Shown: positions 11 through 58,619 of the stretch, piece after piece | Numbering within the stretch: position 1 is the first letter of the stretch | How the letters are laid out: every line of letters begins with the position of its first letter | DNA from: an uncultured virus (IMG/VR IMGVR_UViG_3300044846_004358) | Taxonomy: Duplodnaviria > Heunggongvirae > Uroviricota > Caudoviricetes | IMG/VR virus record: IMGVR_UViG_3300044846_004358 | DNA: 64,000 nucleotides | Direction: 5' to 3' (one strand) | The notes under the pieces: generated by a model | The model's input: only the letters and a program-made list of their open reading frames with translations | What the model was told of the DNA's origin: nothing | Databases searched by the model: none | Position numbers and translations under genes: made by a program

Positions 11-688
11 TTATTCTTTTTCCTCTTTTCCTGAGTATTTAACCCCCATTATTGTACCGATTATACTAAATGCGTTAGTTAATAATATACCTAACATATT
101 TGACCAAGTAGAACCAATCATTTGTGTATCTTTGTTTATTACTAAAGCCAAAATATACATAAATGTGGTTATAATACCGATAGATATAATAACACCTAAT
201 GCAATTCTCACGATGTTACCAATTAATTCGGTTTGTTTTTTCTTTTGTAGAACATCCAAATCATTAACCGCTGCAGTTTTGGCTTCTTCTGCTTGGATTC
301 TTGCTAATTCTGACTTGGCCATCTCTTGTTGAAGTTCCACACTCATTCTTTGGTTGTCTTGTTGCCAAGCAAGTAACTCTCTATTTTGAACTTCGAAAGT
401 CATTTTTGCCTCCTCAACCTCTTTCAAAGAAACTTGGAGTTCATCCATTATTCTTTGATTTTCAGTATTGAGTTCAATTAGTTCTTTGTTCTTTTCCTGA
501 ACTTGTTTTGTTATTTCTAACCTTTTTTTTCTTGTTTCTTTATCTTTATCCTTACAATTCTCAACATATTTAGCAAAATCAGGGTCATCTGAAGAGTCAA
601 TAATCTTCAAAATATTACCTTCTAAACCAATATTTTTCTTTTCGAGTAATTCTATTAACTCTTGTTTTGTTTCCTTATTAAATTTCAT
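11..688 (-). CDS. Coiled-coil protein with two C-terminal transmembrane helices, last gene of the kinase/regulator operon
   Basis: Long E/K/Q-rich heptad region, then two hydrophobic segments (IALGVIISIGIITTFMYILALVI; MLGILLTNAFSIIGTIMGV); start overlaps the stop of the response regulator. Confidence 0.75.
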   Translation of the reverse strand: MKFNKETKQELIELLEKKNIGLEGNILKIIDSSDDPDFAKYVENCKDKDKETRKKRLEITKQVQEKNKELIELNTENQRIMDELQVSLKEVEEAKMTFEVQNRELLAWQQDNQRMSVELQQEMAKSELARIQAEEAKTAAVNDLDVLQKKKQTELIGNIVRIALGVIISIGIITTFMYILALVINKDTQMIGSTWSNMLGILLTNAFSIIGTIMGVKYSGKEEKE

Positions 689-1122
689 TATTTATACACC
701 TTAAATGAGGCAGTTCTTTTTTTATAGCCTTCATAATCTTTTTTGAATTCTTCTAATCTAGGTTCGATATCATCAGATTTTATAATCCAAAATTGTGCGC
801 CAGCTTGAACAGCTTTAGCTTGTTCTTCAGGTTCATTAGATGAGGATATAATCCCTATAACCACATTATTACCATACTCAAAGTTAATCTTTCTAATCAA
901 TTCTATACCATCAAAGGAAGAACCAATTATATTTAAATCAACAAATACACACTCAGGTCTATCTGAATAATCACCACCCAACCATTTTTGAAAAAGTTTA
1001 GCGGCTTCATCAGAACTATTCAATGATTTTAGTGATAAACTAATATCTAATAAAGAACAAGCGTCTTCAAAAACTAAATGGAACAAGTCCTCATCATCTA
1101 CCAACATTAACGAATCAATCAT
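688..1122 (-). CDS. Single-domain (CheY-like) response regulator
   Basis: LVDD acidic pocket, FVDLN phospho-acceptor Asp, DGIELI, ISSS, IIK lysine; no output domain. Confidence 0.92.
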   Translation of the reverse strand: MIDSLMLVDDEDLFHLVFEDACSLLDISLSLKSLNSSDEAAKLFQKWLGGDYSDRPECVFVDLNIIGSSFDGIELIRKINFEYGNNVVIGIISSSNEPEEQAKAVQAGAQFWIIKSDDIEPRLEEFKKDYEGYKKRTASFKVYK

Positions 1123-1136
1123 TTTTTGTTTTTTTT

Positions 1137-3260
1137 TTATTTTATGTTTATTTTCATTTTAGTACCAATATCATTTTTTTCACATGTAATTTCAAATCCG
1201 TGTTCTTCTAAAATTGCAACACAAATATTTAACCCTAATCCTGTACCACTCTCTTTTTGTCCTTCTTTTCTTGTATATGGTTTTGATAAATGGTCGAAAT
1301 CTTGTTGAGTGATTCCTCTACCATTATCTTGTATTATTAACAAATCCCCCTCCATAAATATTTTAACAAATTTCGTATCAGAATCGTTATATTTCAAACC
1401 ATTTCTTATCAGATTATCAATTGATGTACAAAACAATGACTCATTCACATCTTTAGTTATTAATTCCTCGATATGAACCTGACTTTTGTATGAGGTTGTT
1501 GTTAAGTAACTTTCTAAAATACTTTTTAGATTACATTCTGTTTTATTTAATACAACATCTTTTTTTACTAAGTTTGTAAATTCATAAACACCTTTATAAA
1601 CTTTTTGAGCATGGCTCAACCCATCTTTAATCATTTTAAATGGTGCTGTTATTTTTAACTCCTCTATTTGTTCAATAGTTAATCTTCGTTCTAATGAACT
1701 AACTCCCCTAGGTATGTATGTGTTAATACCTGAGTGCATATCGTGTCTTAGAATCTTTGCTGCGTGTTCTAAATAAGTGTTCTTTTTCTCAATTTCTATT
1801 GATTGTGTAATTCTATCAGTTATATCTGTTGCAATTTTCATTACTCTTTGTACTTTACCATCTATATCAAATACAGGATTATATGAAGCTTGAATCCAAA
1901 CTTTGTTTTTATCTTTAGTAAACCTTAAAAACTCATCAGTAACATATTCTCCACTTTTTAACAATTTCCAAAACTCTTTATATTCAGGAGATTTTGAATA
2001 TTCCTTTGAAACAAAAATCTTATGATGTTTACCTTTTAATTCTTTTTCTTCATAACCCATTTTTTCACAGAATAAACTATTAGCAAACATAATTTTACCA
2101 TCCAAATCAAACTCAATAACCATATTCGATGTATTAATAGCATTCATCCTATTTTTTATATCAATTTCTTTTTTCTTGACTTCTGTTACATCATATCTGA
2201 TTGACATATACCCCAAAAACTTACCATTTTCATCAAAATCACCTTTTATATATGAATCAACCCAATATAAGTTACCATTTTTATCCCTATTTGTAACAAT
2301 CTCATTCCAAATCTTTTTCTCAACGACAACATCTTTGTACATATTAGCCCAAAACTCCTTGGGATGTTTACCCGAATTAACAATACTATGGTCTTTTCCT
2401 CTTACTTCATCTAAAGACCATCCAGATACTTCCTCAAACTTTTTATTTACATATGTTATTCTACCTTTATTGTCCGCTTTAGAAACCAAAACAGATGTAT
2501 CAACAAACTTTTCGAACTCTTGTAAATTACCTCTCAAAATATTACTTTCTTTAACCGAATAAGCAAAAGAATATAGTGATGATAACATTTGAGCAAAGTT
2601 AACTTCTAATCCAATCCATTCCCTTAATGTTTTACTCTCAATACACACAACACCAATTACATCGCCTCTGTACATAATTGGAACATCCAACATAGATTTA
2701 ATACCAAGGGGTTTCAAATACCCTTCAACAAAACAATATGTTGCGGTATGAGTTTCAGCATTGTTTGCAATAATAATCGGATTGATTTCTAAGTGTTCAA
2801 AATAGGCGATAAAATCTTTTTTATACATTTCCGCCCCACTATACCATTCATCTTCTTTTTTAATATAAAGTTGTTGACAGATAATTGAGGTTTTATCTGA
2901 ATTATATAACCAAATTGAACATCTATCAGCATCAATTGATTCTGTTACTTCCTTTGTTAAAGTTTTTGCCCCATCCTTTACATTTCCTTGATAAAATAAT
3001 GAATTGTGTGATTGTGATATAAGAACTTTGTTAAGTTTTTTGGAGTATTGTGTTAATTTTATATTATGTTTTAATTTATTAGTATATTCTTTTACCAAGA
3101 TTGAAAAGAATGGTAAAAAAACAATAAAACAAGATAATTCAATTATTTTGATTAATTGTAGTGCGTCATTTATAAAAAATAATGAAATCATCTTCATTAT
3201 AAAGAAAATTGACATAATTAAAACTGAAAAGTAAATAGAAATTTTAACCTTGATTGACAT
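1137..3260 (-). CDS. Membrane-anchored GAF-PAS-PAS sensor histidine kinase
   Basis: Two N-terminal TM segments; GAF (ADRCSIWL, LGIKSMLDVPI, VIGVVC); two PAS/PAC (ITYVNKKF...YWVDSYI; VWIQASYNPV...DIT); H-box RHDMHS, N-box NLIRNGLKY, G1 DNGRGI, G2 GTGLGL. Confidence 0.93.
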   Translation of the reverse strand: MSIKVKISIYFSVLIMSIFFIMKMISLFFINDALQLIKIIELSCFIVFLPFFSILVKEYTNKLKHNIKLTQYSKKLNKVLISQSHNSLFYQGNVKDGAKTLTKEVTESIDADRCSIWLYNSDKTSIICQQLYIKKEDEWYSGAEMYKKDFIAYFEHLEINPIIIANNAETHTATYCFVEGYLKPLGIKSMLDVPIMYRGDVIGVVCIESKTLREWIGLEVNFAQMLSSLYSFAYSVKESNILRGNLQEFEKFVDTSVLVSKADNKGRITYVNKKFEEVSGWSLDEVRGKDHSIVNSGKHPKEFWANMYKDVVVEKKIWNEIVTNRDKNGNLYWVDSYIKGDFDENGKFLGYMSIRYDVTEVKKKEIDIKNRMNAINTSNMVIEFDLDGKIMFANSLFCEKMGYEEKELKGKHHKIFVSKEYSKSPEYKEFWKLLKSGEYVTDEFLRFTKDKNKVWIQASYNPVFDIDGKVQRVMKIATDITDRITQSIEIEKKNTYLEHAAKILRHDMHSGINTYIPRGVSSLERRLTIEQIEELKITAPFKMIKDGLSHAQKVYKGVYEFTNLVKKDVVLNKTECNLKSILESYLTTTSYKSQVHIEELITKDVNESLFCTSIDNLIRNGLKYNDSDTKFVKIFMEGDLLIIQDNGRGITQQDFDHLSKPYTRKEGQKESGTGLGLNICVAILEEHGFEITCEKNDIGTKMKINIK

Positions 3261-3280
3261 AATTGATAACTTTTTTTTAT

Positions 3281-3316
3281 ATAAATACTAACTGAACCTA
3301 GTTAATTGGTATTTAT
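3281..3316. promoter_or_regulatory. Back-to-back TATTTAT motifs (putative phage late-type promoters) for the kinase operon (-) and endolysin (+)
   Basis: ATAAATA at 3281-3287 and TATTTAT at 3310-3316, each about 20 nt before an ATG; the same motif precedes about 28 gene or operon starts in the window. Confidence 0.6.
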
Positions 3317-3334
3317 AAAAAAAACTATAAAACT

Positions 3335-4138
3335 ATGTTAAAAATCGGTTCACAAGGAGAATTAGTTAAACAACTCCAAACAAAATTAGGCGTTACTGCC
3401 GATGGTGCATTCGGTCCTGGTACTGACAAAGCACTTAAAGAATGGCAAACTAAAAATGGTTTAGTTGCTGATGGTATTGCAGGTCCTGCAACACTTGAGA
3501 AAATGGGGGTATCTCTTCCAAAAGTCGAAAAAGAGACATTAAAATTGGACAAACTTAAAGGACAAATTCCTGATTCAGTAATCAATGAAATTAATGCCAA
3601 TGGTGAAAAGTTCGGTATTATCACGAATTTGAGATTGACACACTTTTTAGCACAATGTTCAACAGAATCAGGTAACTTCAAAGCTGTTAATGAGAATCTT
3701 AATTACTCAAAGGATGGTTTGATGAAAATTTTTCCAAAGTATTTTCCTGGTAACTTAGCTGAATCTTACGCTTATAAACCTGAGAAAATTGCATCTCGTG
3801 TTTATGGAAGTAGATTGGGTAATGGTGATGAAACAACTAAAGAAGGTTGGAAATATCGTGGAGCAGGTTTTATACAGTTGACAGGAAAAGACAACTTCAA
3901 AAAATTTGGTGAGTTTTTAGGTGAAGATTTAGTAACAAATCCAGACTTAGTTGCAACGAAATACCCTTTAACTTCCGCAGCATTCTTTTTCAATAGTAAC
4001 AATCTTTGGTCTGTTTGCGACCGTGGTACTGGTGAAGATGTTGTAACAGAAGTAAGTAGAAGAGTAAATGGTGGATTCAATGGTTTAGACCACAGAAAAC
4101 ACGAGTTCAAAAGATTCGAAAAATTACTTTTAGCTTAA
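3335..4138 (+). CDS. Endolysin: peptidoglycan-binding domain plus GH19 (chitinase-like) catalytic domain
   Basis: N-terminal LQ..LG..ADG.FG..T..A.K.WQ..NGLVADGIAGPAT; GH19 motifs HFLAQCSTESG, ENLNYS, YRGAGFIQLTG, RRVNGGFNGLDHR. Confidence 0.92.
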   Translation: MLKIGSQGELVKQLQTKLGVTADGAFGPGTDKALKEWQTKNGLVADGIAGPATLEKMGVSLPKVEKETLKLDKLKGQIPDSVINEINANGEKFGIITNLRLTHFLAQCSTESGNFKAVNENLNYSKDGLMKIFPKYFPGNLAESYAYKPEKIASRVYGSRLGNGDETTKEGWKYRGAGFIQLTGKDNFKKFGEFLGEDLVTNPDLVATKYPLTSAAFFFNSNNLWSVCDRGTGEDVVTEVSRRVNGGFNGLDHRKHEFKRFEKLLLA

Positions 4139-4145
4139 AAAAATT

Positions 4146-4173
4146 AAACCCCACTTTTTAGGTGGGGTTTTTT
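4146..4173. terminator. Bidirectional intrinsic terminator (CCCCAC family)
   Basis: AAACCCCAC-N7-GTGGGGTTT with T tract, between convergent genes. Confidence 0.85.
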
Positions 4174-4918: not shown

Positions 4919-5899
4919 ATGAAAACAATTATTAGATTAACAGAAAATGATTTATACAAAATTGTTAAGAGAGTAATCTCAGAACAAGTAAGTGATGAAA
5001 ACAAAGCAGGAAATTACCTTAAAAATAGTGTCCCATATTCTTTCAAAGGTCTATTTCCAATAAGACCAGATGTACAAAGTGCAACAATAACCTTCGATAG
5101 AACCCTTGGTAACATACCATCACCTCAAATTACCAAACAACCTATCAATGTTGCAGGTATTGAAAATGGTGTTCATTTTTTTATTAAAGATGAATCAGAA
5201 AGTCTGAAGTCTTATTTGAACTCCGTTTTGACTATGAACCTAAATAGTCTTGCAGGAAAACTAACAATAAATGGACAACCTTTAGACCAAGGGAGACCAG
5301 TTGACGAACCAAATGTAGGACCTACTTTTTACACAATTAGTAATGAGTTTAATAAATTGATTGGTGACCTTTCTTCAGGATTAGGTTTGTCAGGAAATCT
5401 GAACCCAAACAACGTTATGACATTTGTTAATTCAGTACCATCTATGACTAGAGATGAATTAAATAATATTATGAGAGCTGTAGAAAGTTTCAGAAAAGCA
5501 TTCGGAAACTTCAAGACTGAGTTTGAAAAAAAGGGTGTTCAAGGACTTGATTTAGGTAAATTTTCTAACGTTGAAAAATATGGTCAAGCTTACTTTGGTG
5601 ATAAAATGCAAGTGTATCTAACATTACAAGTTGATGATACAGGTGATGACCAATTGGATTCTAAATATGAAACATTCCGTGATATGATTGGACAACAATA
5701 TTTGGAATTTGTAAAAAATGGAATAAAACAGAATAACATTTTTATACCTTCTTTAGAATCATTGTTTAAGGCGAGTCCAAGAATTAAAAACGAAATTGAT
5801 AAAGGCGGTATTGGGGGAATGAACAAACTAAATCCTAAAATAAGTAAACTTGTTGTTGTGGTTTATTCACCAAATCCTGGAGGTGTAGAACTTGCTTAA
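4919..5899 (+). CDS. Hypothetical protein with class-A leader (MKTIIRLTENDLYKIVKRVISE)
   Basis: 326-aa ORF; leader shared with 8 other genes. Confidence 0.8.
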   Translation: MKTIIRLTENDLYKIVKRVISEQVSDENKAGNYLKNSVPYSFKGLFPIRPDVQSATITFDRTLGNIPSPQITKQPINVAGIENGVHFFIKDESESLKSYLNSVLTMNLNSLAGKLTINGQPLDQGRPVDEPNVGPTFYTISNEFNKLIGDLSSGLGLSGNLNPNNVMTFVNSVPSMTRDELNNIMRAVESFRKAFGNFKTEFEKKGVQGLDLGKFSNVEKYGQAYFGDKMQVYLTLQVDDTGDDQLDSKYETFRDMIGQQYLEFVKNGIKQNNIFIPSLESLFKASPRIKNEIDKGGIGGMNKLNPKISKLVVVVYSPNPGGVELA

Positions 5900-6733: not shown

Positions 6734-7111
6734 ATGAGAAGAACTGTAAGATTAACTGAAAGTGATTTAGTTAAATTAGTAAAAAGAGTAATCAGTGAAC
6801 AAGCAACAAGTTGTATGGAACCATTACAATCTCATTTAGAGGGTATGATGAACTTAGGTCCTAATTTCAAAGAAGGCCAAAAGAAACCATATAGAGATTT
6901 GCTTATTCAAAATTGTAGTGCTCTTGAAAGTTACATAAAAAGTAACCCTAATGTACAATTTGGTACAGAAACATTAAAAGCAAATAAGACAGCATTTGCA
7001 TGTGTAACTTCTGTTAATTTTGGCAACAAAGAAGAGGATAAAGATATGGCTGTTGCTTTAGCTAAAGTTGGGGCTTTTGTAAATTGTGTAAAAGGTTCTG
7101 GTGGTAAATAA
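6734..7111 (+). CDS. Hypothetical protein with class-A leader (MRRTVRLTESDLVKLVKRVISE)
   Basis: ORF with leader; TATTTAT at 6687-6693. Confidence 0.8.
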   Translation: MRRTVRLTESDLVKLVKRVISEQATSCMEPLQSHLEGMMNLGPNFKEGQKKPYRDLLIQNCSALESYIKSNPNVQFGTETLKANKTAFACVTSVNFGNKEEDKDMAVALAKVGAFVNCVKGSGGK

Positions 7112-12781: not shown

Positions 12782-13273
12782 ATGTTTTTTATCAAAAAAT
12801 ATGAGTTTTATATAAAACTTAGTGTTATTATACTATCAATAATACAACCATTTATTCTTTTGTCAATATGTGGTGAATTATGGTCTTTATCAAGTTATTG
12901 GAGAACACCACTTCAACCAATGTTCATAATAATAAACGCAGCCACAAGTTACTTCTTCTTTAGTACAGACAAATGGTTGGTACCTTCGATTCTGTTATTA
13001 CTTCTGACTGCGTTTTCTTTAGACCTATACCCAACAACACATAATATTATTGCAGGTCTTTTCTTTCTCTCTTGTTCCTATCCTCTTATGACATTAAAAA
13101 GATTCCAATTTTTTGGTATTCTTTATTATATGTCAATATTTGTATTGTTGTATTCAGGTATGTTGTGGTTCGAGATTTATTGTGTTTTAATACTGGGGTC
13201 ATACCATCTTACAATACTTTTATATAAACATCATTTAGATAAATTAAGAGAAGAATCACATAACAAATCATAA
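12782..13273 (+). CDS. Polytopic membrane protein
   Basis: Five to six hydrophobic segments. Confidence 0.7.
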   Translation: MFFIKKYEFYIKLSVIILSIIQPFILLSICGELWSLSSYWRTPLQPMFIIINAATSYFFFSTDKWLVPSILLLLLTAFSLDLYPTTHNIIAGLFFLSCSYPLMTLKRFQFFGILYYMSIFVLLYSGMLWFEIYCVLILGSYHLTILLYKHHLDKLREESHNKS

Positions 13274-13863
13274 CTTTGATTAATTTGATGTTTAATAATC
13301 AATTCATCATAACGCCATAACTCGTATTTTTCTATAACCATACCAATGTGTTTCCAATATTCACCAAATCCATAACCTTTACAATGATTTGTCCAATATT
13401 TCCAATTTTTACCAACAGCGTGTTTGTAATATTTCTTAAGAAATAAAGCATGGTCTTCAAATGATTCAGAGAAACTTTCATACTTTCTCCATTTTGTTCC
13501 ACCCAAAGATACATAATAATCACCATCGTACAATTCTTTATAATACTTCATACCGAATAGATTATTTGCATTCTTTGCAATTGGTGAATACCCACCCCCA
13601 CTTTCAGCTATCGCTTGTGCTAATTGAACACTTGTAGGTATACCATGTTCTAAGTGATAGTACATTGCAATTTCGTGGTAATTATCACAAAATTTACTAT
13701 ACGGGTGTTTTCGATTTATTTTCACCTTGTTTGATAATTGTATTGCTACAACATCATTGTGAACTTTCTTTTCAACCTCCGAAGAAACTGAAATTTTTTG
13801 TGGACTATTAGAATCCAAGGAAACCAACAAGAACCACAAAATGATTGCAATTATCTTTTTCAT
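13231..13863 (-). CDS. GH73 glucosaminidase (FlgJ-like) with signal/anchor sequence
   Basis: GIPTSVQLAQAIAESG, NNLFGMK, WRKYES..ESFEDH. Confidence 0.85.
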   Translation of the reverse strand: MKKIIAIILWFLLVSLDSNSPQKISVSSEVEKKVHNDVVAIQLSNKVKINRKHPYSKFCDNYHEIAMYYHLEHGIPTSVQLAQAIAESGGGYSPIAKNANNLFGMKYYKELYDGDYYVSLGGTKWRKYESFSESFEDHALFLKKYYKHAVGKNWKYWTNHCKGYGFGEYWKHIGMVIEKYELWRYDELIIKHQINQSYDLLCDSSLNLSK

Positions 13864-19123: not shown

Positions 19124-20194
19124 TTACACAAAATTACTAGTACCTTGAGCCCCAAGTGATTGAGGAGATGGGCATACCTCACTATTTAACATTTTATCGA
19201 AATAATTTTTAGAATTATCAACCAAATAGTTCTCATTGGATTCTGATAATACAAAAACTTTAGCTTTATCCCAATATTTTTGTAAAATATTCAAAAATTC
19301 TGTTGTTAAATTTATGCAACCATATGATAAATCTAAATTTAAACCACCAGTGGATACCGCATTTATAAATTCCTTTTTTGCCTCAGGGTTTTTAACATCT
19401 CCCAAAAACTTTTTTGCCTTTTGTAATACTAATGTTCGTGGTTGTTCTAGGTAATAACCATGAATTGCTTGTGTGTATTGTTTGTTATTTTGAACCAAAT
19501 GTTTTATATTATTTATCTTTCCCGCATACGATGCGTCACTCGTAATCGTACCCATATCATAAACACCAGGAGAGGTAAACCTCTTGTTATTTCTATCTAT
19601 CCAATCATACACATAATCATGATTGTATTTTCTATTCTGACTTGTTTGGTCAACATATCCCTTACCATTAATCCATTTAAAACCCGCTTTGATAGCTGAC
19701 TCATCCCAAGATAACATAGCATTTGCTATATCCGTAGGGTTAGTGGGTTGTTTGTTTTTTCCTGAAATAATTACATCTTTCGCAATAAAATTACCATTCG
19801 GGTCAAACAGATATATCAATTGATTTAAAGTGTCAACTACAATCAAATTATAAGTTCTCATCAATGGTCTAATACAATTCAAAGCAATTTCACAAGAAAT
19901 TCTATCATTCTTTATTGTTTTATAATACATTTCAGCTCTTTTATTTATTAAATTATTAATATAATTCCAAATAGTTGTATCAACTGTAATCGATGGTAAA
20001 TTAAGTTGTTTTTTGTAAAAATCGTAAATATTTTCAATATCAACAATTTGTTTAGAGTCCTTATTAATATAAGGACAAAATTGTTTTTGTCTCTCTGATG
20101 ATTTTTTAATTTCAGGTTTTGATTCTTGTTCACTCAAAATACCATACAATAATTTGATTAAAACCTTTTCCTCCTCCGTAATTCTAACTTTCAT
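19124..20194 (-). CDS. Class-B leader protein with L,D-transpeptidase (YkuD)-like domain
   Basis: LIVVD...Q.IYLF, TSPGVY, AIHG, SYGCINL. Confidence 0.65.
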   Translation of the reverse strand: MKVRITEEEKVLIKLLYGILSEQESKPEIKKSSERQKQFCPYINKDSKQIVDIENIYDFYKKQLNLPSITVDTTIWNYINNLINKRAEMYYKTIKNDRISCEIALNCIRPLMRTYNLIVVDTLNQLIYLFDPNGNFIAKDVIISGKNKQPTNPTDIANAMLSWDESAIKAGFKWINGKGYVDQTSQNRKYNHDYVYDWIDRNNKRFTSPGVYDMGTITSDASYAGKINNIKHLVQNNKQYTQAIHGYYLEQPRTLVLQKAKKFLGDVKNPEAKKEFINAVSTGGLNLDLSYGCINLTTEFLNILQKYWDKAKVFVLSESNENYLVDNSKNYFDKMLNSEVCPSPQSLGAQGTSNFV

Positions 20195-20885: not shown

Positions 20886-21422
20886 TTAGTTTTTATTTAT
20901 AAAGTCATTATATACATTCTCATCAAAGAAAAATCTACCCCCCAATTCCACAGAATTAACACCATAGTCATATCTATAATCATTATCAAGATATGCCTTG
21001 ATTAAATCACCACCATCCACAGTTATGGTTACCAATGGAGAACCCTTTTTTTCATATGAAACATCATCATCCACCCTTTCCTCATTTCCCTCACCAATAT
21101 ATTCAAAGTCATCATTCATAAAACCCAATAACATATCAACCTCTTGCTTTAATCTTTCAGGATTTATATAATCACCATAGTTAGAAAAGAAATCATCAAT
21201 TTCATCCTTAAATTGTTCATAGGTAGGATATTCACTTGATTCATCATCATTTGTCATTTCAAATTCATCATCACCATCCATTTCCATTAATGGTTTTACA
21301 TTTCCCAAACTTGATTTCAATAATTTATTGAATTTTTGTGTTTCAACAATCAAGGAATTATTATATTGTTCCAAGATTCTATTTTTTTCTTCACCAGATA
21401 AATCGTTTAATAAATGTTTCAT
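20886..21422 (-). CDS. Acidic hypothetical protein with class-B-like leader (MKHLLNDLSGEEKNRILEQY)
   Basis: 178-aa ORF; TATTTAT motif at 21435-21441. Confidence 0.72.
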   Translation of the reverse strand: MKHLLNDLSGEEKNRILEQYNNSLIVETQKFNKLLKSSLGNVKPLMEMDGDDEFEMTNDDESSEYPTYEQFKDEIDDFFSNYGDYINPERLKQEVDMLLGFMNDDFEYIGEGNEERVDDDVSYEKKGSPLVTITVDGGDLIKAYLDNDYRYDYGVNSVELGGRFFFDENVYNDFINKN

Positions 21423-21499: not shown

Positions 21500-21934
21500 T
21501 TATAATAACCCCATTATCGATTTAATCTCCATCTTCAATTTATCAAAATCAGGCATCTTAAAATAACCCTGCCATACCAATGTCTTCCCATTCTCCATAT
21601 TCATTGTCGTACCCACTCCATTAATTAATTTCTTTGACAGTTCAACATTAGATGTGGGACTAGTAACAAACAAACGATATGTACTCTCATCATCAACAAT
21701 CTTAGGTCCAACCTTCAACTCTAATTCCCCACCATTCTTACCCTTATAATATAATTGATTGTTGACAAAAACCATCCCCAATTCCTTACCAATCTTTTCC
21801 ATATCAATCTTACCTTGAAAGGTGGGAACACCAGGAGGAGCTTGGTCAATATACAAATCAACATTCTGCTCAGAAATTATTCTATTTACCAATTTAATTA
21901 ATTCACCCTCTGTTAATCTTATAATTCTTTTCAT
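21500..21934 (-). CDS. Hypothetical protein with class-A leader
   Basis: MKRIIRLTEGELIKLVNRIISE; TATTTAT motif at 21949-21955. Confidence 0.8.
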   Translation of the reverse strand: MKRIIRLTEGELIKLVNRIISEQNVDLYIDQAPPGVPTFQGKIDMEKIGKELGMVFVNNQLYYKGKNGGELELKVGPKIVDDESTYRLFVTSPTSNVELSKKLINGVGTTMNMENGKTLVWQGYFKMPDFDKLKMEIKSIMGLL

Positions 21935-37805: not shown

Positions 37806-38093
37806 TTACATTGGTAATGTTGGGTCAGAAGGAGTTTCTGTGGATTCTTTGTCTCCTCTTTTGGAAACAATCCATTTGTCAACAGATGCGATACCGAATG
37901 AAGCGATTGTTAGATACATAAATCCATCAAAGATAAATTGATTGATTAACAATTCTTTTCCTGTTACACCAGTAACGATATCAACACCCATAGCAATAAC
38001 CATCATCATAAAGGAAATGAAACCAACAACAGATTTTTCGTTGATGTCATTTTGGTCTTTGAACATTTCAATGAAGAAGTACTTTTTTTTCAT
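37806..38093 (-). CDS. Small two-TM membrane protein (holin candidate)
   Basis: Two hydrophobic helices and a charged C-terminal tail; own TATTTAT motif (38111-38117) and terminator. Confidence 0.55.
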   Translation of the reverse strand: MKKKYFFIEMFKDQNDINEKSVVGFISFMMMVIAMGVDIVTGVTGKELLINQFIFDGFMYLTIASFGIASVDKWIVSKRGDKESTETPSDPTLPM

Positions 38094-41218: not shown

Positions 41219-44047
41219 TTAGAACTTGTGACTTACACCAAATGTAAATGTCACACCAGGATTGACTGAATTGAATATTTGTTTTTCAGCTTTATATGAT
41301 TGATAAAAACTTTCCACTCTATCATTAAGAATATTTTGTACTCTAAAATCTATTGATGTATTCTTAATCTTTTGACTTACAGATAAGTTTAATGAGTGAA
41401 ATGGTTCATCATAGATATCAGGTGATAATCCTGTTCCAACGATGGATAATGTTTGTCCTTTAACATTATAAAACACACCCACATTTAATCCAATCTTTTC
41501 GACATTATAAGATAACCCAGTATTAATAACAAATGGTGATTGTCCGGCCATAACTCTGGTATTGTTTATGTTCTCACCATCTCTTTCATATTGTTTCCTT
41601 GCTTGGTATTCTGTCTCTGTCATTGTTATTTTGGATTGAGCAATGGTGACATTGGTATTGAAAGAAAAGTTCTTTAGAAACGATTTTCTTAACTCAAACT
41701 CAATTCCATATAAATCCCCATTTCCAACATTCCTTGGTTGATATTCCGTTGATGTTTGTTGTTCAGGTATTCTTACCAATTCAATTGGGTTATTAAAGTG
41801 TTTATAAAATCCTGATACAGAGTAAAAATCCTTATCTTTGGCCAACTCCCATCTCAAATCCAAGTTATCAATATTCGTTTCTCTTAGATTACCATTCCAA
41901 GTTCCGTTATAACTGAATAAACCTCCATTGAATATTCTATTTGTGATTGGGTCTAATATTTGAGCATAAGACATTTCCTTGAATGATGGTCTGGCAATTG
42001 TTCTGTTATATGATAATCTAAGATTTTGTTTTGGGGTTATTGAATAGATTAAGTTAGTAGATGGAAATAAATGAAATGTATTTAATACAATATCATTTTT
42101 AAGATTGTTTCCATTCATATCACCATTGGCATATCTTATATCTCTTCCTGTATGTCTTTGGATAAAATATTCAGCTCTTAATCCACCATTAATTTTGAAT
42201 CTATTTTTAATATTATATTCACCTGAAACATATACACCAGTGTTATTCACATTTGATGAATATTGATTTGGGTTTGGGTTAACATTACCAGATTGAATAT
42301 ATGTTCCATTAATCTCACTTGGATATAAGTTTTCCGTACTCATAACAAGATTTGGGTCTGGTGTTGTCCAAGATTGCGGTTTGGAAAACATCAATTCATA
42401 TAACTTGATACTATAATCTCTTAACTTATATGAATGTGATACACCAAAGTTTAATTTGAAGTTATTAAATTGTTTGGATACATCAACTTTAACATTATTG
42501 TTAAACTCACTTAAGTTTCTCCATATCCTTGATGGATTACCAGCTTCACCAGATGAGAATGTATATGTTCCATCATAACTGAATGGTGTCTTTCTAATAT
42601 CAGGGTCAACTGATGAAGAATAAGTTGGGGATAATTTCCAATCAACATTCCAATCATTGATGTTATGTTTTCCACTTAATAATAAATTGGTTAAACCTCT
42701 TTGGTTATATTCCAAGTTATATGATTTGGCTTCATAACCTGATTGTCCAACGGCATTTGAGTTGTTAGTTATATTGAATACACCTGCTCTACTTTCCCCA
42801 CTCTGTAAATGAATAAGATTTAGTTTGTATTTACTCTTACCTTTGGTATAGTTAAACCCAACTAATCCACCCAAGAAGTTATTAATCTCAGTAAGTTGTC
42901 CTGATTGTTTGGTTGCATATATCAATTCATTCTCATTATGATTTGATGACCTTTGATATTCACCATACTTTACATCAGTATAAAACTTGTAATCAGTTTT
43001 ATGATTGATTGATAAGATATATCCAAAGTTCTTATTTGTTTTACCATAAGATATACCACCACCGAAATCAATCATACTTAAATCAGTTGTAGCCCCTAAT
43101 ACAGGATTCAATCTGTTTAACAAATTGACTATGTTTTGTTGATGTTGTGTTGAACTGATATTTGATGGTTTGTTAAATGGGGTTGGGATATAACTTCTAT
43201 TCAATTCGTCAGGTAATCTTCTTAAACCACCATCAAATCCCAATATATCAGTCGCTGAACCTTTTTCACTTATGAAGTTGGGATTGAAGTGAACTTGGGG
43301 ATTATAACCTAATGATAATGAGAAAGAACCTTGACTTGTTTCAGGTATATCTTTTGTTTCCACATTAACCAATCCACCAGTAAAATCAGCAGGTAATTCA
43401 GGTGAAAAACTTTTTGATACGACAATATTATTCAGTAAATTGGTTGGGAAGATATCCATCTGTAATGAGTTTCTATCTGGGTCTAAACCTGGTATTTCAA
43501 TTCCATTTAATAATGTCTTGGAATATCTATCACCCAATCCTCTTACATAAACATATTTACCACTTTCGACTGAAACTCCTGTAACTCTTTTACTTGCATC
43601 AACCGCATTATTGTCACCAGTACTTTTCATTTTCTCAGAACTGATACCATCCAATAAGATATTGGATTCCATTTTCATATCAATTAATGCTGTTTCATTT
43701 TTTACAATCCTATCAGCTGTAATCACAACTTCACCTGTCTGTAAAATATCTTCTTTCATATAGATATCAGGCAAACTTGTCAGGTCACCAACTAGTGAGA
43801 TTTTTTCTATTGTAATCTTTTGATATGATATATAGGAAAACACCAAATCAATCGTGTCCAATTCTGTTGTAATTGAAAATGTTCCATCAAAATCGGTAAT
43901 CACACCTGTTGATGTCCCCTTTATAATAATTGTTACACCAACCAAAGGTTCTTCAGTTGTTGCATCAATTACTTTACCAAATAATACATTTTGTGAATAA
44001 GAGAGGAGGGGAAGTAAAACGAATAATAACGATAATAATGTTTTCAT
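41219..44047 (-). CDS. TonB-dependent outer-membrane receptor (Bacteroidota type, N-terminal carboxypeptidase-regulatory-like domain)
   Basis: Signal peptide; GKVID..T.EPL.GV.I...GT..G..TD.DG.F; plug RVTGVSV...YVRGLGDRY; beta-barrel; C-terminal Phe. Confidence 0.92.
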   Translation of the reverse strand: MKTLLSLLFVLLPLLSYSQNVLFGKVIDATTEEPLVGVTIIIKGTSTGVITDFDGTFSITTELDTIDLVFSYISYQKITIEKISLVGDLTSLPDIYMKEDILQTGEVVITADRIVKNETALIDMKMESNILLDGISSEKMKSTGDNNAVDASKRVTGVSVESGKYVYVRGLGDRYSKTLLNGIEIPGLDPDRNSLQMDIFPTNLLNNIVVSKSFSPELPADFTGGLVNVETKDIPETSQGSFSLSLGYNPQVHFNPNFISEKGSATDILGFDGGLRRLPDELNRSYIPTPFNKPSNISSTQHQQNIVNLLNRLNPVLGATTDLSMIDFGGGISYGKTNKNFGYILSINHKTDYKFYTDVKYGEYQRSSNHNENELIYATKQSGQLTEINNFLGGLVGFNYTKGKSKYKLNLIHLQSGESRAGVFNITNNSNAVGQSGYEAKSYNLEYNQRGLTNLLLSGKHNINDWNVDWKLSPTYSSSVDPDIRKTPFSYDGTYTFSSGEAGNPSRIWRNLSEFNNNVKVDVSKQFNNFKLNFGVSHSYKLRDYSIKLYELMFSKPQSWTTPDPNLVMSTENLYPSEINGTYIQSGNVNPNPNQYSSNVNNTGVYVSGEYNIKNRFKINGGLRAEYFIQRHTGRDIRYANGDMNGNNLKNDIVLNTFHLFPSTNLIYSITPKQNLRLSYNRTIARPSFKEMSYAQILDPITNRIFNGGLFSYNGTWNGNLRETNIDNLDLRWELAKDKDFYSVSGFYKHFNNPIELVRIPEQQTSTEYQPRNVGNGDLYGIEFELRKSFLKNFSFNTNVTIAQSKITMTETEYQARKQYERDGENINNTRVMAGQSPFVINTGLSYNVEKIGLNVGVFYNVKGQTLSIVGTGLSPDIYDEPFHSLNLSVSQKIKNTSIDFRVQNILNDRVESFYQSYKAEKQIFNSVNPGVTFTFGVSHKF

Positions 44048-47209: not shown

Positions 47210-48910
47210 TTACTTCTTTATCATTGTTTGGATTGTCTCGTGTAAGGATGATAGGTGTTTTATCCTTATGGTATATTTTCCTGATGGAATATTGGAGGTA
47301 TTAATCGAAACATAATTTCCACAAGTTTGACAACTTACATTATATTGAAATACTTTCTGTCCTAATATATTAATGACTTGTATCTCCAATTCTTCATTTT
47401 GTTCACTTTCGTAAGTATAAATTAATGAATCTTCAAATGGGTTGGGATAAACTTTGGATTCTATTTGGTTTTTTGTTTCTAAATAAATGATTGAGGAATA
47501 TGAAAAGGTTTCATCTAAATCTACCATTTTTAATCTATAATAATTTGAACCACTATAAGGTGAGTTATCTATAAAGTTGTAACTTTTGGATGGGTCAGTT
47601 TCCACAATACCTATTTTAATAAAATCATATCCATTGTTACTTCTCTCTATTTCAAAGTGTGAACTATTAATTTCTTGTTCTGTTAACCAGTACAAATGAT
47701 TTTCTCTACCTTCATTGTGACCATCAAAGGTTGCTAAGTAAATTGGTAATATACAATTGGGGTCAACAAAAACATTTACCATTGCTCTTGAACTAATACA
47801 ACCATTCAGTTCCGCCTCAGCATAAAATGGTGTATTATTAAGTAAGGGCGATGTTGTATAACTATATCCAGTACCTAACAATGTTCCACTTGTTGAAGCA
47901 TCGTACCATTGTAATGTTCCAATATTTGATGAACCATATAACACAGCAAAATCACTTGGACATATTGTAGTATCAGGATTTAATGTTGGTATATTTGGTA
48001 TTGGTTTAACCACAACATTAGTTGAAGAGGTTGAACTACAAGTATTTCTCGTACCCAAACCATTAATCATACCATTGTATGTACCAGTTACAGAATATGA
48101 TGTTGTTGAGGTGGGTGTAAATGAAACACCATTAGATATACCACCATCCCAAACATAAGTATTAGCGCCTGATGCCGTTAATGTGGTTGGTGTACCATCA
48201 CATACACTATTAACACCATTTATTGTAATTGTTGGTGTTGGTATTATTTCGATAAGTTCAACATTATCAATCCAAAACTCTTCACCAGCTGAATTGGCAC
48301 GACAATATAAATCCACAGCAACCTGAGTGATGTTTGGTTGTAGATTCAAAGTAATTGTGGAAGGGCCAGTTGTTGTTGCTCCCGCTGGTGCCTGATAAAC
48401 ATCACCAGTTGGTGCTGCTGAGTTTGTGAATGTTCCGTTTGCTGTATGTGTAATTGTACCTGTTGAAGTATATGGCCAAGTAGCATTTGAGTTACCAGTT
48501 ATTCTTAATTCTGTCACATAAGAAACACCCCCATTTGTTGAAACTTGAACACTCAAATAATCTGCAACATCTAATCCTCTAGTTGTTGCAGTAGAATTAG
48601 AAAAGGTATAAGAAGCTAATCTAAACTTTAGTTGATATGAATATGCGGGATTTAATCCGGTAATATTAGGTAGAGAATACCAATCTTGTTCAATTGCTGA
48701 AGTACCATTACCTGAACCATAAATTACAGCACTAATATTTGCCGATACTGAAGCATTCGTAAAAAAACCAGTAGTTAAAGCTGGTGTCCACCAATCACCG
48801 AACCAAGTAAAGGTTTCCATATTGTCATAATAAACGGTGGATGTACAAGATTGTGTATAAACATTAACACTGAATAACACAGAGAGAATAAACAATAATA
48901 TTTTTTTCAT
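47210..48910 (-). CDS. Secreted Thr-rich Ig-like protein with T9SS type-A C-terminal sorting domain
   Basis: Signal peptide; Ig-like repeats (C.G...TLTASGA.TY.W); LPI.L..F...W.T.QE.N...F.IERS; KVYPNPF...INILGQ...PSGKYTIRI...IKK. Confidence 0.88.
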   Translation of the reverse strand: MKKILLFILSVLFSVNVYTQSCTSTVYYDNMETFTWFGDWWTPALTTGFFTNASVSANISAVIYGSGNGTSAIEQDWYSLPNITGLNPAYSYQLKFRLASYTFSNSTATTRGLDVADYLSVQVSTNGGVSYVTELRITGNSNATWPYTSTGTITHTANGTFTNSAAPTGDVYQAPAGATTTGPSTITLNLQPNITQVAVDLYCRANSAGEEFWIDNVELIEIIPTPTITINGVNSVCDGTPTTLTASGANTYVWDGGISNGVSFTPTSTTSYSVTGTYNGMINGLGTRNTCSSTSSTNVVVKPIPNIPTLNPDTTICPSDFAVLYGSSNIGTLQWYDASTSGTLLGTGYSYTTSPLLNNTPFYAEAELNGCISSRAMVNVFVDPNCILPIYLATFDGHNEGRENHLYWLTEQEINSSHFEIERSNNGYDFIKIGIVETDPSKSYNFIDNSPYSGSNYYRLKMVDLDETFSYSSIIYLETKNQIESKVYPNPFEDSLIYTYESEQNEELEIQVINILGQKVFQYNVSCQTCGNYVSINTSNIPSGKYTIRIKHLSSLHETIQTMIKK

Positions 48911-51673: not shown

Positions 51674-52117
51674 TTATTTTAGGAACTTTAACTTGTAAAG
51701 CGTAGAATTAATCAAAGTGCAAACATTATCAATTTCATTCTGTAACCAACTATCTTTACAACAATCTCTTAACTGAGTTACTTTATCACAAAGTTTCTCG
51801 AAATAACCTATTGTATTTTCATTACCTTTGTATTCATTGAACGGGAAGTTTTTATATCCTTTTATAATCCCATATTTTCCTTGGTAAGCTTCAACAATTG
51901 TATCAACTAAACCATCAATTCCTTCGTAATATTTTTGTAATGCTTTGTGTTCAGCATATGATTCTGTTTGTAGATGATAGGTGTGTGCTTGTGTTTGTGA
52001 GTGCATCAAAATTGATATCATTTCCACAAAATCAGTGTTAGTTTTTTCTTCTTGCTCAACCATTAAACCTCTTTTCTTAGCCTCTTCGAATACTGTTTTT
52101 TTTATTTTGTCTTCCAT
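51674..52117 (-). CDS. Ferritin/Dps-like four-helix protein
   Basis: H..H...H....SYAEHKAL..YY......D...EAYQG; QNEID...LI..T.YKL. Confidence 0.7.
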   Translation of the reverse strand: MEDKIKKTVFEEAKKRGLMVEQEEKTNTDFVEMISILMHSQTQAHTYHLQTESYAEHKALQKYYEGIDGLVDTIVEAYQGKYGIIKGYKNFPFNEYKGNENTIGYFEKLCDKVTQLRDCCKDSWLQNEIDNVCTLINSTLYKLKFLK

Positions 52118-56945: not shown

Positions 56946-58619
56946 TTAACCTTTCATTATTTTCTTTATTATATTCCTAAAGTAGTTTTCATCGATATTC
57001 TGTTTTTTCTCTTTCTGAATTTCATTTTTCAACTTTTCAACAAACTCATCTTTAATCATTCCAATGAACTCAGTTGTTTTGTATGGACCGAATCCACCAC
57101 CCAAAGCAGAAGCTTGGAAATTTGTAATACACTTGTGTCCACCACTATTGTTTTTTATAACATCATAAGCATTAATATAAACTTCTTTTAGAATACTTTG
57201 TTCAAAATCCGTTAAACCAACAAAAGGTTTCATCATAGTTTTTCTAATTAGATTTTGCCAAAACTTAAGTGGGGTCATTTTTTTTTGTCCTTTTTTCTTA
57301 TTTTCCTCCTCACTTTTCTTATTTTCCTCTTCACTTTTTTTGTTTGTAAAATTTTTAAATTTTTCAGGTACATCAAAATAGCCTTTTATATTTATGATTT
57401 TACCATCTTTATCTTTGATAACTTTACCATTCTCATCTTTTTCGCTATACAATGCAATAAAATCTTGAAAGGTAAAACCAACACTTTCATAAGGTACAAA
57501 TTTTTTACTACTTTCAGCAACTTCTTTTAAACGTAAAAGTGTAGTCTTAATACCTTCTAATTCAGATTTATGGTTATTGAGAATTTCTGTATTCATTTTA
57601 CCTAAATCAACCCCTTTGAGTCCTCTAGATTCTTTATATGGATTACAAGAAACTTGTAATAATCCAACTGAACCCCAAGTTACAACCTGGAAATCAGCGT
57701 CAGGAATCAATTCAAAAGCCACATATCTATCATAACTTCCAACATTAGCCATACTAGCACCAGCAGACCCATCTTTGATGATAATACCATCCTCGTATTT
57801 GAGTTGTTTACCTATGTTACCTCTAACTTTCTCCAAATAGGTTTCACCATGTTTTTGAAGTTGTTGTTGAATTCTTCTGATTTTATCACCTTTTGGTTCT
57901 TCATTACCCAACTCTGTGTTCAAAAATCCCTTCACTTTATCCATTAAACCAGAATCCATAATCATTCTTATCAAATTATTATAGATATTTTTAAGTGATG
58001 GAGTACAAATAAGAACAAGTCTCTCTAATATATTTTTACCTTCAAATTCTTTATTTTTAAACGCTAACAATATTTTGTTTGTAACCAATCCCATTATTAT
58101 ATTACTTCTTTCAGGAGATTCTTTTTCAACCTTGAAAATGTAATTCATAACCTCCCTAACAGTAATATTCATTGCTCTAAAATTAGCAGAATCAATTGTT
58201 GATATTATTTTAATGTCAGATGGAGGAAATAAGTCATATGTTGAAATTACACCTGATATTGTTTCAACATTTGACCTTGCATGTCTGAAACTTGTTGATG
58301 TTCCTGATTCAACCCCTGCTTGTCTATCGTGATGGTCTGTATGAATCTTAAACATTGGTTTTCCGTGAGCAAAATCTACCAAAACAGGCATAACATTTCC
58401 ACTGGCATCTGGTTTTTTGATAGCAAACTCATCTGTACCATATTGTATTGTTTCAGCATCAACAACCTCTATACCATAACTTTCCAAATATACTTTCATT
58501 GCAATTGCTGATGTAACACCATCCAAATCAATATGAAAATATATTTTGGCCTTGTTGTATCTTTTTGCGATATCATTAATATCACGAATACCTGATTCCT
58601 TAATTAATTGTTTTTTCAT
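56946..58619 (-). CDS. DHH-family phosphoesterase-like protein
   Basis: FHIDLDG, VLVDF, HTDHH, SGGH; TATTTAT motif at 58637-58643. Confidence 0.7.
   Translation of the reverse strand: MKKQLIKESGIRDINDIAKRYNKAKIYFHIDLDGVTSAIAMKVYLESYGIEVVDAETIQYGTDEFAIKKPDASGNVMPVLVDFAHGKPMFKIHTDHHDRQAGVESGTSTSFRHARSNVETISGVISTYDLFPPSDIKIISTIDSANFRAMNITVREVMNYIFKVEKESPERSNIIMGLVTNKILLAFKNKEFEGKNILERLVLICTPSLKNIYNNLIRMIMDSGLMDKVKGFLNTELGNEEPKGDKIRRIQQQLQKHGETYLEKVRGNIGKQLKYEDGIIIKDGSAGASMANVGSYDRYVAFELIPDADFQVVTWGSVGLLQVSCNPYKESRGLKGVDLGKMNTEILNNHKSELEGIKTTLLRLKEVAESSKKFVPYESVGFTFQDFIALYSEKDENGKVIKDKDGKIINIKGYFDVPEKFKNFTNKKSEEENKKSEEENKKKGQKKMTPLKFWQNLIRKTMMKPFVGLTDFEQSILKEVYINAYDVIKNNSGGHKCITNFQASALGGGFGPYKTTEFIGMIKDEFVEKLKNEIQKEKKQNIDENYFRNIIKKIMKG

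Follow-up and report, generated by a model that had tools for sequence, protein, structure and literature searches.

A phage histidine-kinase operon beside an endolysin gene: a probable phosphorelay for the control of host lysis through a modular membrane protein

What does a complete histidine-kinase pathway do in a bacteriophage, and why does it lie back to back with the gene for an endolysin? The question is raised by a 64,000-nucleotide stretch of DNA (the window) that is part of an IMG/VR virus record (IMGVR_UViG_3300044846_004358; 98,377 bp, CheckV completeness 33%). Near the start of the window, three genes encode a sensor histidine kinase (HK), a receiver-only response regulator (RR) and a 225-residue coiled-coil protein with two transmembrane (TM) segments, here termed P225, and this trio is divergent from a gene encoding an endolysin of glycoside hydrolase family 19 (GH19) (Table 1). 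We consider it rather probable that the trio is a phage-encoded phosphorelay that controls host lysis through P225, a new modular membrane effector, which suggests that phages of this family may read the internal state of their host to decide the moment of lysis. In the literature searched, we found neither an earlier functional context for complete histidine-kinase pathways of jumbo phages nor an account of a phage histidine-kinase pathway with a link to lysis.

The original prediction, made from the DNA letters, described a tightly packed operon of a GAF-PAS-PAS kinase, a receiver-only regulator and a coiled-coil two-TM protein, and the open reading frames (ORFs) and domains are indeed where it placed them. 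The RR stop codon and the P225 start codon share one base (TAATG), and 14 nt separate the HK stop codon from the RR start. This arrangement is that of a translationally coupled operon, divergent from the endolysin gene. The 74-bp intergenic region common to the HK and endolysin genes, with a TATTTAT motif in each direction, was likewise confirmed.

The HK (707 residues) contains, by Pfam, a GAF domain (residues 98-231), two PAS domains (PAS1, about 257-360, or about 251-361 in its full extent; PAS2, about 377-483) and a HATPase_c domain (614-705; 52 bits against a cut-off of 26.4). Hydropathy adds to the earlier description two N-terminal hydrophobic segments within residues 1-58, and the kinase is therefore evidently tethered to the membrane, its sensors facing the cytoplasm. 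Sequence matches in the PDB are MmoS (3ewk, 1.2e-24), Aer (8dik, 2.2e-16), NifL (2gj3, 7.5e-11) and HK853 (3dge, 3e-10). The predicted phospho-acceptor, H506, lies in the segment LEHAAKILRH(506)DMHSGINTY, a putative H-box that we take to resemble the H-E/D-x-x-x-P pattern. Across 86 distinct family kinases, conservation is at least 85-97% for the H-box (97% or more) together with the N, G1 and G2 boxes (DNLIRNGLKYN, DNGRG and GTGLGL), and all four are near-invariant. The assignment of a dimerization and histidine phosphotransfer (DHp) region is likely, and the protein is very probably a two-component sensor histidine kinase with intact catalytic and phospho-acceptor motifs.

PAS1 is closest to the PAS-A domain of MmoS, followed by Aer and NifL. 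In PMC9668731, PAS domains of these proteins are described as binding flavin adenine dinucleotide (FAD), and the FAD-pocket residues T18, H53, N85 and R115 of Aer are equated with T103, H132, N164 and R195 of MmoS. By alignment, with the mapping checked by residue spacing, these Aer residues correspond to S256, H291, N324 and R355 of the HK. The last three are invariant in all 61 PAS1-bearing family kinases, and position 256 is Ser in 40 of these and Ala in 21; PAS2 and the PAS domains of most of the sensor fusions described below, when read by eye, have no equivalents of the Asn and Arg. With the pocket residues kept in 61 of 61 kinases, the earlier idea that a PAS domain of this protein might bind flavin is borne out for PAS1 at the level of sequence, and PAS1 may reasonably be regarded as a flavin-based redox or energy sensor. 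The kinase resembles Aer, MmoS and NifL (8DIK, 3EWK and 2GJ3) in having an alignable PAS1 that keeps H53, N85 and R115 of Aer (PMC9668731), and differs from them in the addition of a GAF domain and a second PAS domain and in that flavin binding is, for PAS1, a prediction.

Kinase relatives are 62-71% identical to the HK of the window. Sensor content varies between relatives: the TM anchor, the GAF domain or PAS1 may be present or not. In some lineages (relatives L118, L185, L075 and L206), two extra genes reside between the first HK and the RR. One encodes an approximately 210-residue protein with a signal-peptide-like N-terminus, and the other a second histidine kinase of 407-439 residues, with a signal-peptide-like N-terminus and a HATPase_c domain. 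The second kinase and the secreted protein suggest that several inputs, one of them extracytoplasmic, could converge on a single RR.

The RR (144 residues) consists of a receiver (Pfam PF00072, Response_reg, 31.9 bits, just above the cut-off of 30.2) followed by a conserved C-terminal extension of about 28 residues with an invariant tail; no output domain was found in Pfam, PHROG or other family searches. The receiver signature (D9/D10, the phospho-acceptor D62, S93/S94 and K115) is invariant in 23 diverse orthologues, and the nearest solved sequence is also a response regulator (3ilh, 2.3e-6). Mean column identity is 89% for the RR (23 orthologues), versus 65% for P225. The RR gene is present in single copy in all five near-complete trio-bearing relatives (290-322 kb, 91-100% complete, with direct terminal repeats in one).

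P225 is made up of an N-terminal input module (about residues 1-110), a variable coiled-coil stalk and a C-terminal TM hairpin at about 153-186 and about 195-218, where hydropathy marks hydrophobic segments at 153-186 and 198-216. The invariant positions of the N-terminal module are E23-G24-N25 and R53/R56/L57/T60/Q64/N67 (E-G-N and R-x2-R-L-x2-T-x3-Q-x2-N). The second TM helix, which is polar and glycine-rich, is nearly invariant (W-x-N-x2-GILLTN-x-FSI-x-GTI-x-G-x-KY), and the protein ends in a charged tail. An AlphaFold2 model (22-sequence alignment; mean predicted local distance difference test (pLDDT) score 83.9) displays an N-terminal helical cap, a helix spanning residues 36-184, a tight turn and a second helix at 189-223. 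The first of these helices is uninterrupted in the model, with the stalk continuing into the first hydrophobic segment.

P225 has no match in Pfam, PHROGs, NCBIfam or PADLOC, and a JetC match of 12.6 bits was disregarded as coiled coil. A Foldseek comparison of the model with the PDB returned nothing below E 5, which is uninformative for one long helix; the ESM Atlas neighbors are unnamed viral clusters only; and in the deposited phage genomes of INPHARED there was no P225 match, the HK matching at the PAS level only. A word-indexed search places P225 in a family of 5,591 clusters at 90% identity, with neither a Pfam domain nor an informative name in any source, the largest contigs measuring about 330 kb. 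When 1.84 billion representatives were searched exhaustively with a profile, only 269 proteins were recovered at E ≤ 0.001. Two known layouts were considered and rejected. The i-spanins have an N-terminal TM domain and a periplasmic coiled coil, and P225 shows the reverse, an N-terminal soluble coiled coil without a signal segment and a C-terminal two-TM hairpin; a membrane-tethered transcription factor is contradicted by the topology and by the absence of a DNA-binding domain. Stand-alone forms of the membrane module of about 100 residues (78 matches) come for the most part from contigs no longer than 2 kb, with starts at internal Met positions, and are not regarded as a separate class.

The partnership of P225 with the RR is apparent from gene order. 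When IMG/VR loci are collapsed by the DNA of the RR and P225 genes, 89 distinct variants remain; P225 directly follows the RR in every one of them, and the HK lies upstream of the RR in 85, the other four running off the contig. An independent metagenome sample contains 76 distinct variants, 40-64% identical to P225 of the window, and the RR is directly upstream of P225 in all 62 that can be judged.

The evidence that we consider decisive comes from domain shuffling. Residues 119-219 of P225 (the end of the stalk and the TM hairpin, here P225C) recur as the C-terminus of proteins of 245-372 residues (57% identity, E 7e-37) whose N-termini are sensors: PAS-PAS, a single PAS2-type domain, a single FAD-type PAS or GAF. 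These sensors are of the same types as in the HK of the window, with most fusions using the PAS2 type, and an RR is next to none of the 62 distinct PAS-PAS fusion variants. Fusions in the other direction also exist. The first approximately 110 residues of P225 precede histidine-kinase cores in five mutually distant representatives (P0319, P0326, P0333, P0334 and P0317), a rare class of about 320-350 residues. In the single contig of this class that offers context (1 kb; L374 609-1058), the genes for HK, RR and N-module kinase follow one another with overlapping codons. No relatives of the class were found in IMG/VR, and a metagenome scan returned mostly ordinary P225 genes; two further proteins from the profile search (P0247 and P0275), which by eye contain glycosyltransferase-like and permease-like parts, were excluded as seemingly chimeric or misassembled. 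The N-module kinases would imply a kinase-regulator-kinase cascade in some elements. Overall, the N-terminal module of P225 reads as a unit that travels with the RR and is swapped for PAS or GAF where the RR is absent, and because of this shuffling in both directions P225 is best described as an input module, a coiled-coil transmitter and a membrane output. The RR-P225 pairing (89/89 and 62/62) and the sensor fusions support P225 as the likely output of the regulator, as had been proposed.

The original prediction also called for a modeled complex of the regulator with P225, and this check yielded a weak pass. Prediction with residues 1-120 of P225 and the RR gave a median score of 0.41 (runs of 0.48, 0.41 and 0.37; best of three controls, 0.02), with a contact agreement among the runs of at least 100% (of the smaller set) and a partner pLDDT of at least 86. 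In calibration, the mark was reached by 116 of 157 solved complexes and by 2 of 215 mismatched pairs, and scores of 0.60 or lower comprised 18 of the 157 solved complexes together with both passing mismatches, so that a pass in this range tends to be wrong where there was no prior reason to expect the pair. The predicted complex adds a little to a pairing that we already considered likely.

The link between this module and lysis comes from its genomic surroundings. The endolysin (267 residues) carries PG_binding_1 (47.9 bits) and Glyco_hydro_19 (34.2 bits, cut-off 25.5) domains and matches phrog_181, ‘endolysin’ (8.7e-63). It contains no hydrophobic segment by hydropathy, and its access to the cell wall therefore presumably depends on a holin. 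The trio is flanked on each side by 1 kb or more of sequence in 64 IMG/VR variants, and 39 of these have a GH19 gene no more than 300 nt away. The other neighbors seen in the window phage are adjacent in 0-7 of these 64 (phosphoesterase, 3; synthetase-like gene, 7; DnaK, 5; a 326-residue ORF, 0). The GH19 gene itself occurs in several positions: over 85 variants, it is divergent and upstream, as in the window, in 24, co-directional and downstream of P225 in 21, and co-directional and upstream in 3. In three near-complete relatives, the sole GH19 gene of the genome adjoins the trio. Elsewhere the enzyme is substituted, by a GH108 gene divergent from the kinase (L031), by an M15 peptidase gene just after P225 (L028 and L029) or by a PHROG ‘endolysin’ family in place of GH19 (L166). 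The fetched flanks of 27 of the 89 IMG/VR variants contain no GH19 gene; 10 of these have no upstream flank, 4 encode another type of endolysin, and in about 13 none is recognized.

The sensor-P225C fusions, too, reside in lysis cassettes. Around the 62 PAS-PAS fusion variants there is a GH19 homologue in 39, an adjoining small membrane protein of one family (TM82/93) in 40 and a Phage_holin_4_1-type gene in 16 (Pfam 28.3 and 45.2 bits in fusion-type phages, cut-off 22.2), with at least one of the three beside the fusion in 52. All eight single-PAS fusion loci display the order small TM gene, fusion, endolysin (GH19 in six, M15 in two), with genes that abut or overlap. The proposal that the module is tied to lysis genes is upheld by the proximity of GH19 in 39 of 64 variants, by the replacement of one enzyme with another and by these cassettes.

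The window phage has its own TM82/93 family member, a 95-residue protein encoded about 34 kb from the trio, with a ATATTTAT box upstream of the gene (Table 1). It has no Pfam or PHROG family and is a candidate holin. The family is present in two of the five near-complete trio relatives; a Phage_holin_4_1 gene is present in none of the five, and none was found in the window's own record, which is 33% complete.

Could P225 itself be the holin? With its pair of hydrophobic helices and charged tail at the C-terminus, and its gene in or near lysis cassettes, it could conceivably be a large, class II-like holin with a cytoplasmic regulatory stalk, in which the RR triggers hole formation. This would be a sub-case of the proposed lysis phosphorelay. 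It is in keeping with the polar, glycine-rich and near-invariant second helix of the TM hairpin, with the lack of Phage_holin_4_1 in all five near-complete relatives (only two of which have the small TM family) and with an endolysin that has neither a signal nor an anchor segment. However, P225 is larger than most holins, possesses a 150-residue cytoplasmic stalk and co-occurs with other holin candidates, and we regard this possibility as unlikely. Because fusion-type phages keep a separate Pfam holin and/or small TM protein beside the P225C gene, we lean toward P225 as an accessory, antiholin-like timing regulator rather than the sole holin.

A working scheme can be drawn from these elements. 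The HK would read the cytoplasm through its GAF domain, PAS1 (a probable FAD-type redox sensor) and the second PAS, autophosphorylate on H506 and pass the phosphoryl group to D62 of the RR. The phosphorylated RR would dock on the N-terminal module of P225, and the signal would run down the long helix into the C-terminal TM hairpin, which might act on the lysis machinery as either an antiholin-like brake or a holin-like trigger. The output of P225 would then set when the GH19 endolysin reaches the cell wall. In this scheme, the phosphotransfer, the binding of RR to P225, the nature of the input and whether lysis is hastened or delayed are inferred.

Several observations weigh against this scheme. 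Pfam HisKA has no match to the DHp region of the HK at E ≤ 0.01, P225 belongs to no Pfam or PHROG holin family and matches no solved fold, and the predicted RR-P225 complex is weak. The endolysin linkage is frequent and not universal, with about 13 of the 89 variants having adequate flanks and no recognized enzyme. By BLAST, a GH19, GH108 or M15 match was found in 14 of the 76 metagenome loci, many of which are on short contigs and for which these three enzyme families were queried, and GH19 is absent from one complete 321 kb relative. Much of the synteny is inherited within one phage clade, and the counts are not independent events. In addition, the conservation of the RR is far above that of P225 and the HK, and the RR could have another, possibly host, partner.

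Some of these points would suit a phosphorelay and a P225 whose role at the membrane is unrelated to lysis timing, such as superinfection exclusion, control of membrane potential or transport while the host is being taken over, or anchoring of a late assembly step, the adjacency of the endolysin then reflecting co-regulation in a late or membrane gene cluster. P225 falls in no known holin or antiholin family, the variants just mentioned have no recognized endolysin nearby, the candidate small holin of the window phage is 34 kb away, and the promoter-like box described below precedes many unrelated genes. Against this stands the endolysin as the most persistent neighbor (39/64, versus 0-7/64 for the others), kept through three rearrangement classes and two enzyme replacements, and the fusions of small phages are wedged between small TM or holin genes and the endolysin, often with overlapping codons. 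A non-lysis role on the membrane thus seems improbable.

The conservation of the RR raises a further alternative, in which the phage hijacks host signaling: the RR would dock on host proteins (kinases, or the gliding and secretion machinery of Bacteroidota), and P225 would be a tether or a phosphate sink. The RR is near-frozen (89% mean column identity, with its invariant C-terminal tail) while its phage partners vary far more, single-domain receivers such as CheY and DivK can have several partners, and some relatives encode a second, periplasm-facing kinase. Yet the sensor-P225C fusions drop the RR and retain both the membrane module and the lysis context, which points to the membrane module as the conserved business end, and in the cases examined the RR is always followed by a gene with a P225-type N-module. 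Hijacking is the least probable of the readings considered here, and we hold it to be quite doubtful.

How does the proposed lysis phosphorelay compare with known systems? For a virulent phage, the chief life-history decision is when to lyse its host, and almost all that is understood of it comes from holin clocks and the superinfection signal of T4. In T4 lysis inhibition, the antiholins RI and RIII act on the holin T; further antiholins are lambda S107, P1 LydB and that of phage 21. These systems are alike in that a phage membrane protein, encoded with or near the lysis genes, tunes holin timing on a signal. The T4-type antiholins, however, have no kinase, receiver, PAS or GAF sensor, and the T4 signal is periplasmic (superinfection), whereas here cytoplasmic sensors would feed a membrane module, through a full phosphorelay in the trio and directly in the fusions. 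Pfam, PHROG and the Foldseek comparison with the PDB revealed no resemblance of P225 to antiholins in sequence or fold.

Similar comparisons can be drawn with cellular signaling. The LytSR two-component system, which controls the holin/antiholin-like cid and lrg genes of Staphylococcus and Bacillus, also couples a two-component system to holin-like membrane proteins and cell lysis. LytR, however, is a DNA-binding transcriptional regulator encoded on the bacterial chromosome, while the trio is phage-encoded, its RR has no output domain and the proposed coupling is between proteins. Single-domain response regulators that act by docking are known from CheY-FliM and from DivK with DivL and PleC; the RR of the trio is likewise receiver-only, with all the phospho-signature residues and its putative partner encoded by the next gene, and the N-module-kinase variants recall the allosteric kinase control of the DivK type. 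Here the difference is that the partner module (P225 1-110) is of a novel family, and that the proposed output is a TM hairpin set among lysis genes. Finally, the phage receptors that set lysis-lysogeny, arbitrium AimR and VqmA of VP882, also have a phage read a signal for a lysis decision, but they are transcription factors in a lysogeny decision, whereas the trio would be a membrane-level module in apparently virulent jumbo phages. The two-component system, the PAS and GAF domains and the endolysin are thus familiar parts; the output family and the system-level logic are not.

Taken more widely, the fusions and the trio could belong to an unrecognized group of modular lysis regulators in Bacteroidota phages, each composed of a sensor, a coiled-coil transmitter and a TM hairpin, that couple lysis to redox, energy or metabolic state, with the parts fused in small phages and split into a phosphorelay in jumbo phages. 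We offer this generalization tentatively, its chances being a little short of even. If the lysis phosphorelay is real, it would be a new post-translational route by which a phage reads host physiology and acts on lysis, and jumbo phages would integrate cytoplasmic and, in some lineages, periplasmic inputs in a programmable lysis clock, a virus-encoded two-component system. The natural PAS-P225C fusions would be simple single-protein versions of the system, and the design of input, stalk and hairpin could be useful as a signal-gated lysis switch. It would also, as far as the literature was searched, give complete histidine-kinase pathways of jumbo phages their first proposed functional setting.

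The system was originally described as phage-borne, and its distribution agrees. An alignment scan for P225 in one genome each of 185,579 prokaryotic species yielded eight loci, all on contigs (3-89 kb) of metagenome-assembled genomes (MAGs) that are labeled as eight different phyla and have phage-like gene content, the pattern of phage contigs misbinned into MAGs. The trio is therefore not a mainly bacterial system unlinked to lysis genes: cellular loci number eight in 185,579 species, and in most lineages the trio is linked to an endolysin. Together with this near-absence from cellular genomes, the origin of the window in an IMG/VR virus record and the five 290-322 kb relatives, in all of which a large terminase exceeds the Pfam cut-off, bear out a phage location.

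The record itself encodes homing and HNH endonucleases, DNA methyltransferases, thymidylate synthase and several PHROG-only families; no capsid or terminase gene was found in the sampled third of the phage genome. It is a fragment of an approximately 300 kb jumbo phage, with a probable Bacteroidota host. The host assignment is suggested because the window encodes a 942-residue SusC-like TonB-dependent receptor (41219-44047 (-); CarboxypepD_reg, Plug and beta-barrel) and a 566-residue protein that combines an Ig-like domain with a C-terminal sorting domain for type IX secretion (47210-48910 (-)), both of which are unusual phage cargo; the Por_Secre_tail domain is characteristic of Bacteroidota. 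The trio-bearing jumbo phages may be virulent.

Table 1. Position of the trio, the endolysin gene and associated features in the window
Feature	Position	Strand	Basis or remark
P225	11-688	(-)	ORF
RR (response regulator)	688-1122	(-)	ORF, Pfam Response_reg
HK (sensor histidine kinase)	1137-3260	(-)	ORF, Pfam
Divergent HK/GH19 intergenic region, 74 bp	3261-3334		One TATTTAT box per direction
TATTTAT box, HK side	3281-3287	(-)	About 25 nt before start codon
TATTTAT box, GH19 side	3310-3316	(+)	About 25 nt before start codon
GH19 endolysin	3335-4138	(+)	ORF, Pfam and PHROG
Bidirectional terminator-like hairpin	4146-4170		Between endolysin and convergent phosphoesterase gene
95-residue small membrane protein, TM82/93 family	37806-38093	(-)	tblastn 5.9e-21 and 1.6e-20

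The two TATTTAT copies in the HK/GH19 spacer are probably promoter elements. The motif is not enriched in the window as a whole (65 copies, against 58 ± 7.5 expected; 65 or more occur in 18 of 100 shuffles). It is nevertheless positioned: the 80-nt regions ahead of 98 ORF starts hold 30 copies in the sense and 19 in the antisense orientation, and 22 of the 30 sense copies lie 11-29 nt from the start codon. Among 11 distinct relative variants, the copy before GH19 is kept at 22-28 nt in 10, in a spacer that has otherwise diverged; in the eleventh (L047), whose ORF call is doubtful, it lies at 8 nt. The copy before the HK is kept in 9 of the 11. The box precedes genes of mixed kinds, lysins and a TonB-dependent receptor among them, so that it assigns no timing class to the operon; the reading of the motif as a late promoter was therefore dropped, and the late expression originally proposed is not supported.

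Across the window, start codons are preceded at 11-29 nt by a promoter-like box, (G)ATATTTAT, often just after a G+C-rich terminator-like hairpin; examples are upstream of 19124-20194, 20886-21422, 21500-21934, 37806-38093, 51674-52117 and 56946-58619. Very short leaders of this kind fit Bacteroidota-style expression signals. The terminator-like hairpin after the endolysin gene recurs at another place in the record (G000:C1:35274-35311), with 89% identity over 37-38 nt.

Beyond P225, with which the operon ends, are a convergent class-II aminoacyl-tRNA-synthetase-like gene and then a DnaK homologue, both outside the window. The former encodes a 277-residue class-II synthetase-like or AsnA-like protein (L295 191-1024 (-); phrog_29758 at 3.5e-91, with weak AsnRS and EpmA matches), and the latter a protein of 643 residues (L295 1265-3196 (+); phrog_22485 at 3.7e-257). 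Within the window, two further peptidoglycan hydrolases, a glucosaminidase (13231-13863 (-)) and a phage lysozyme (14412-15098 (-)), are encoded beside a gene with tape-measure similarity; we take these two enzymes for probable virion-associated lysins, not for the endolysin.

A similar N-terminal peptide, M-K/R-x-x-I/V-R-L-T-E-S/N-D-L-x-x-I-V-K-R-V-I-x-E-Q, or a looser version of it, is present on many otherwise unrelated ORFs, among them 4919-5899 (+) and 6734-7111 (+) of the window, ORFs outside the window and ORFs of two relatives (L051 and L076). These ORFs match no Pfam or PHROG family, and the common peptide could be a targeting, packaging or processing signal.

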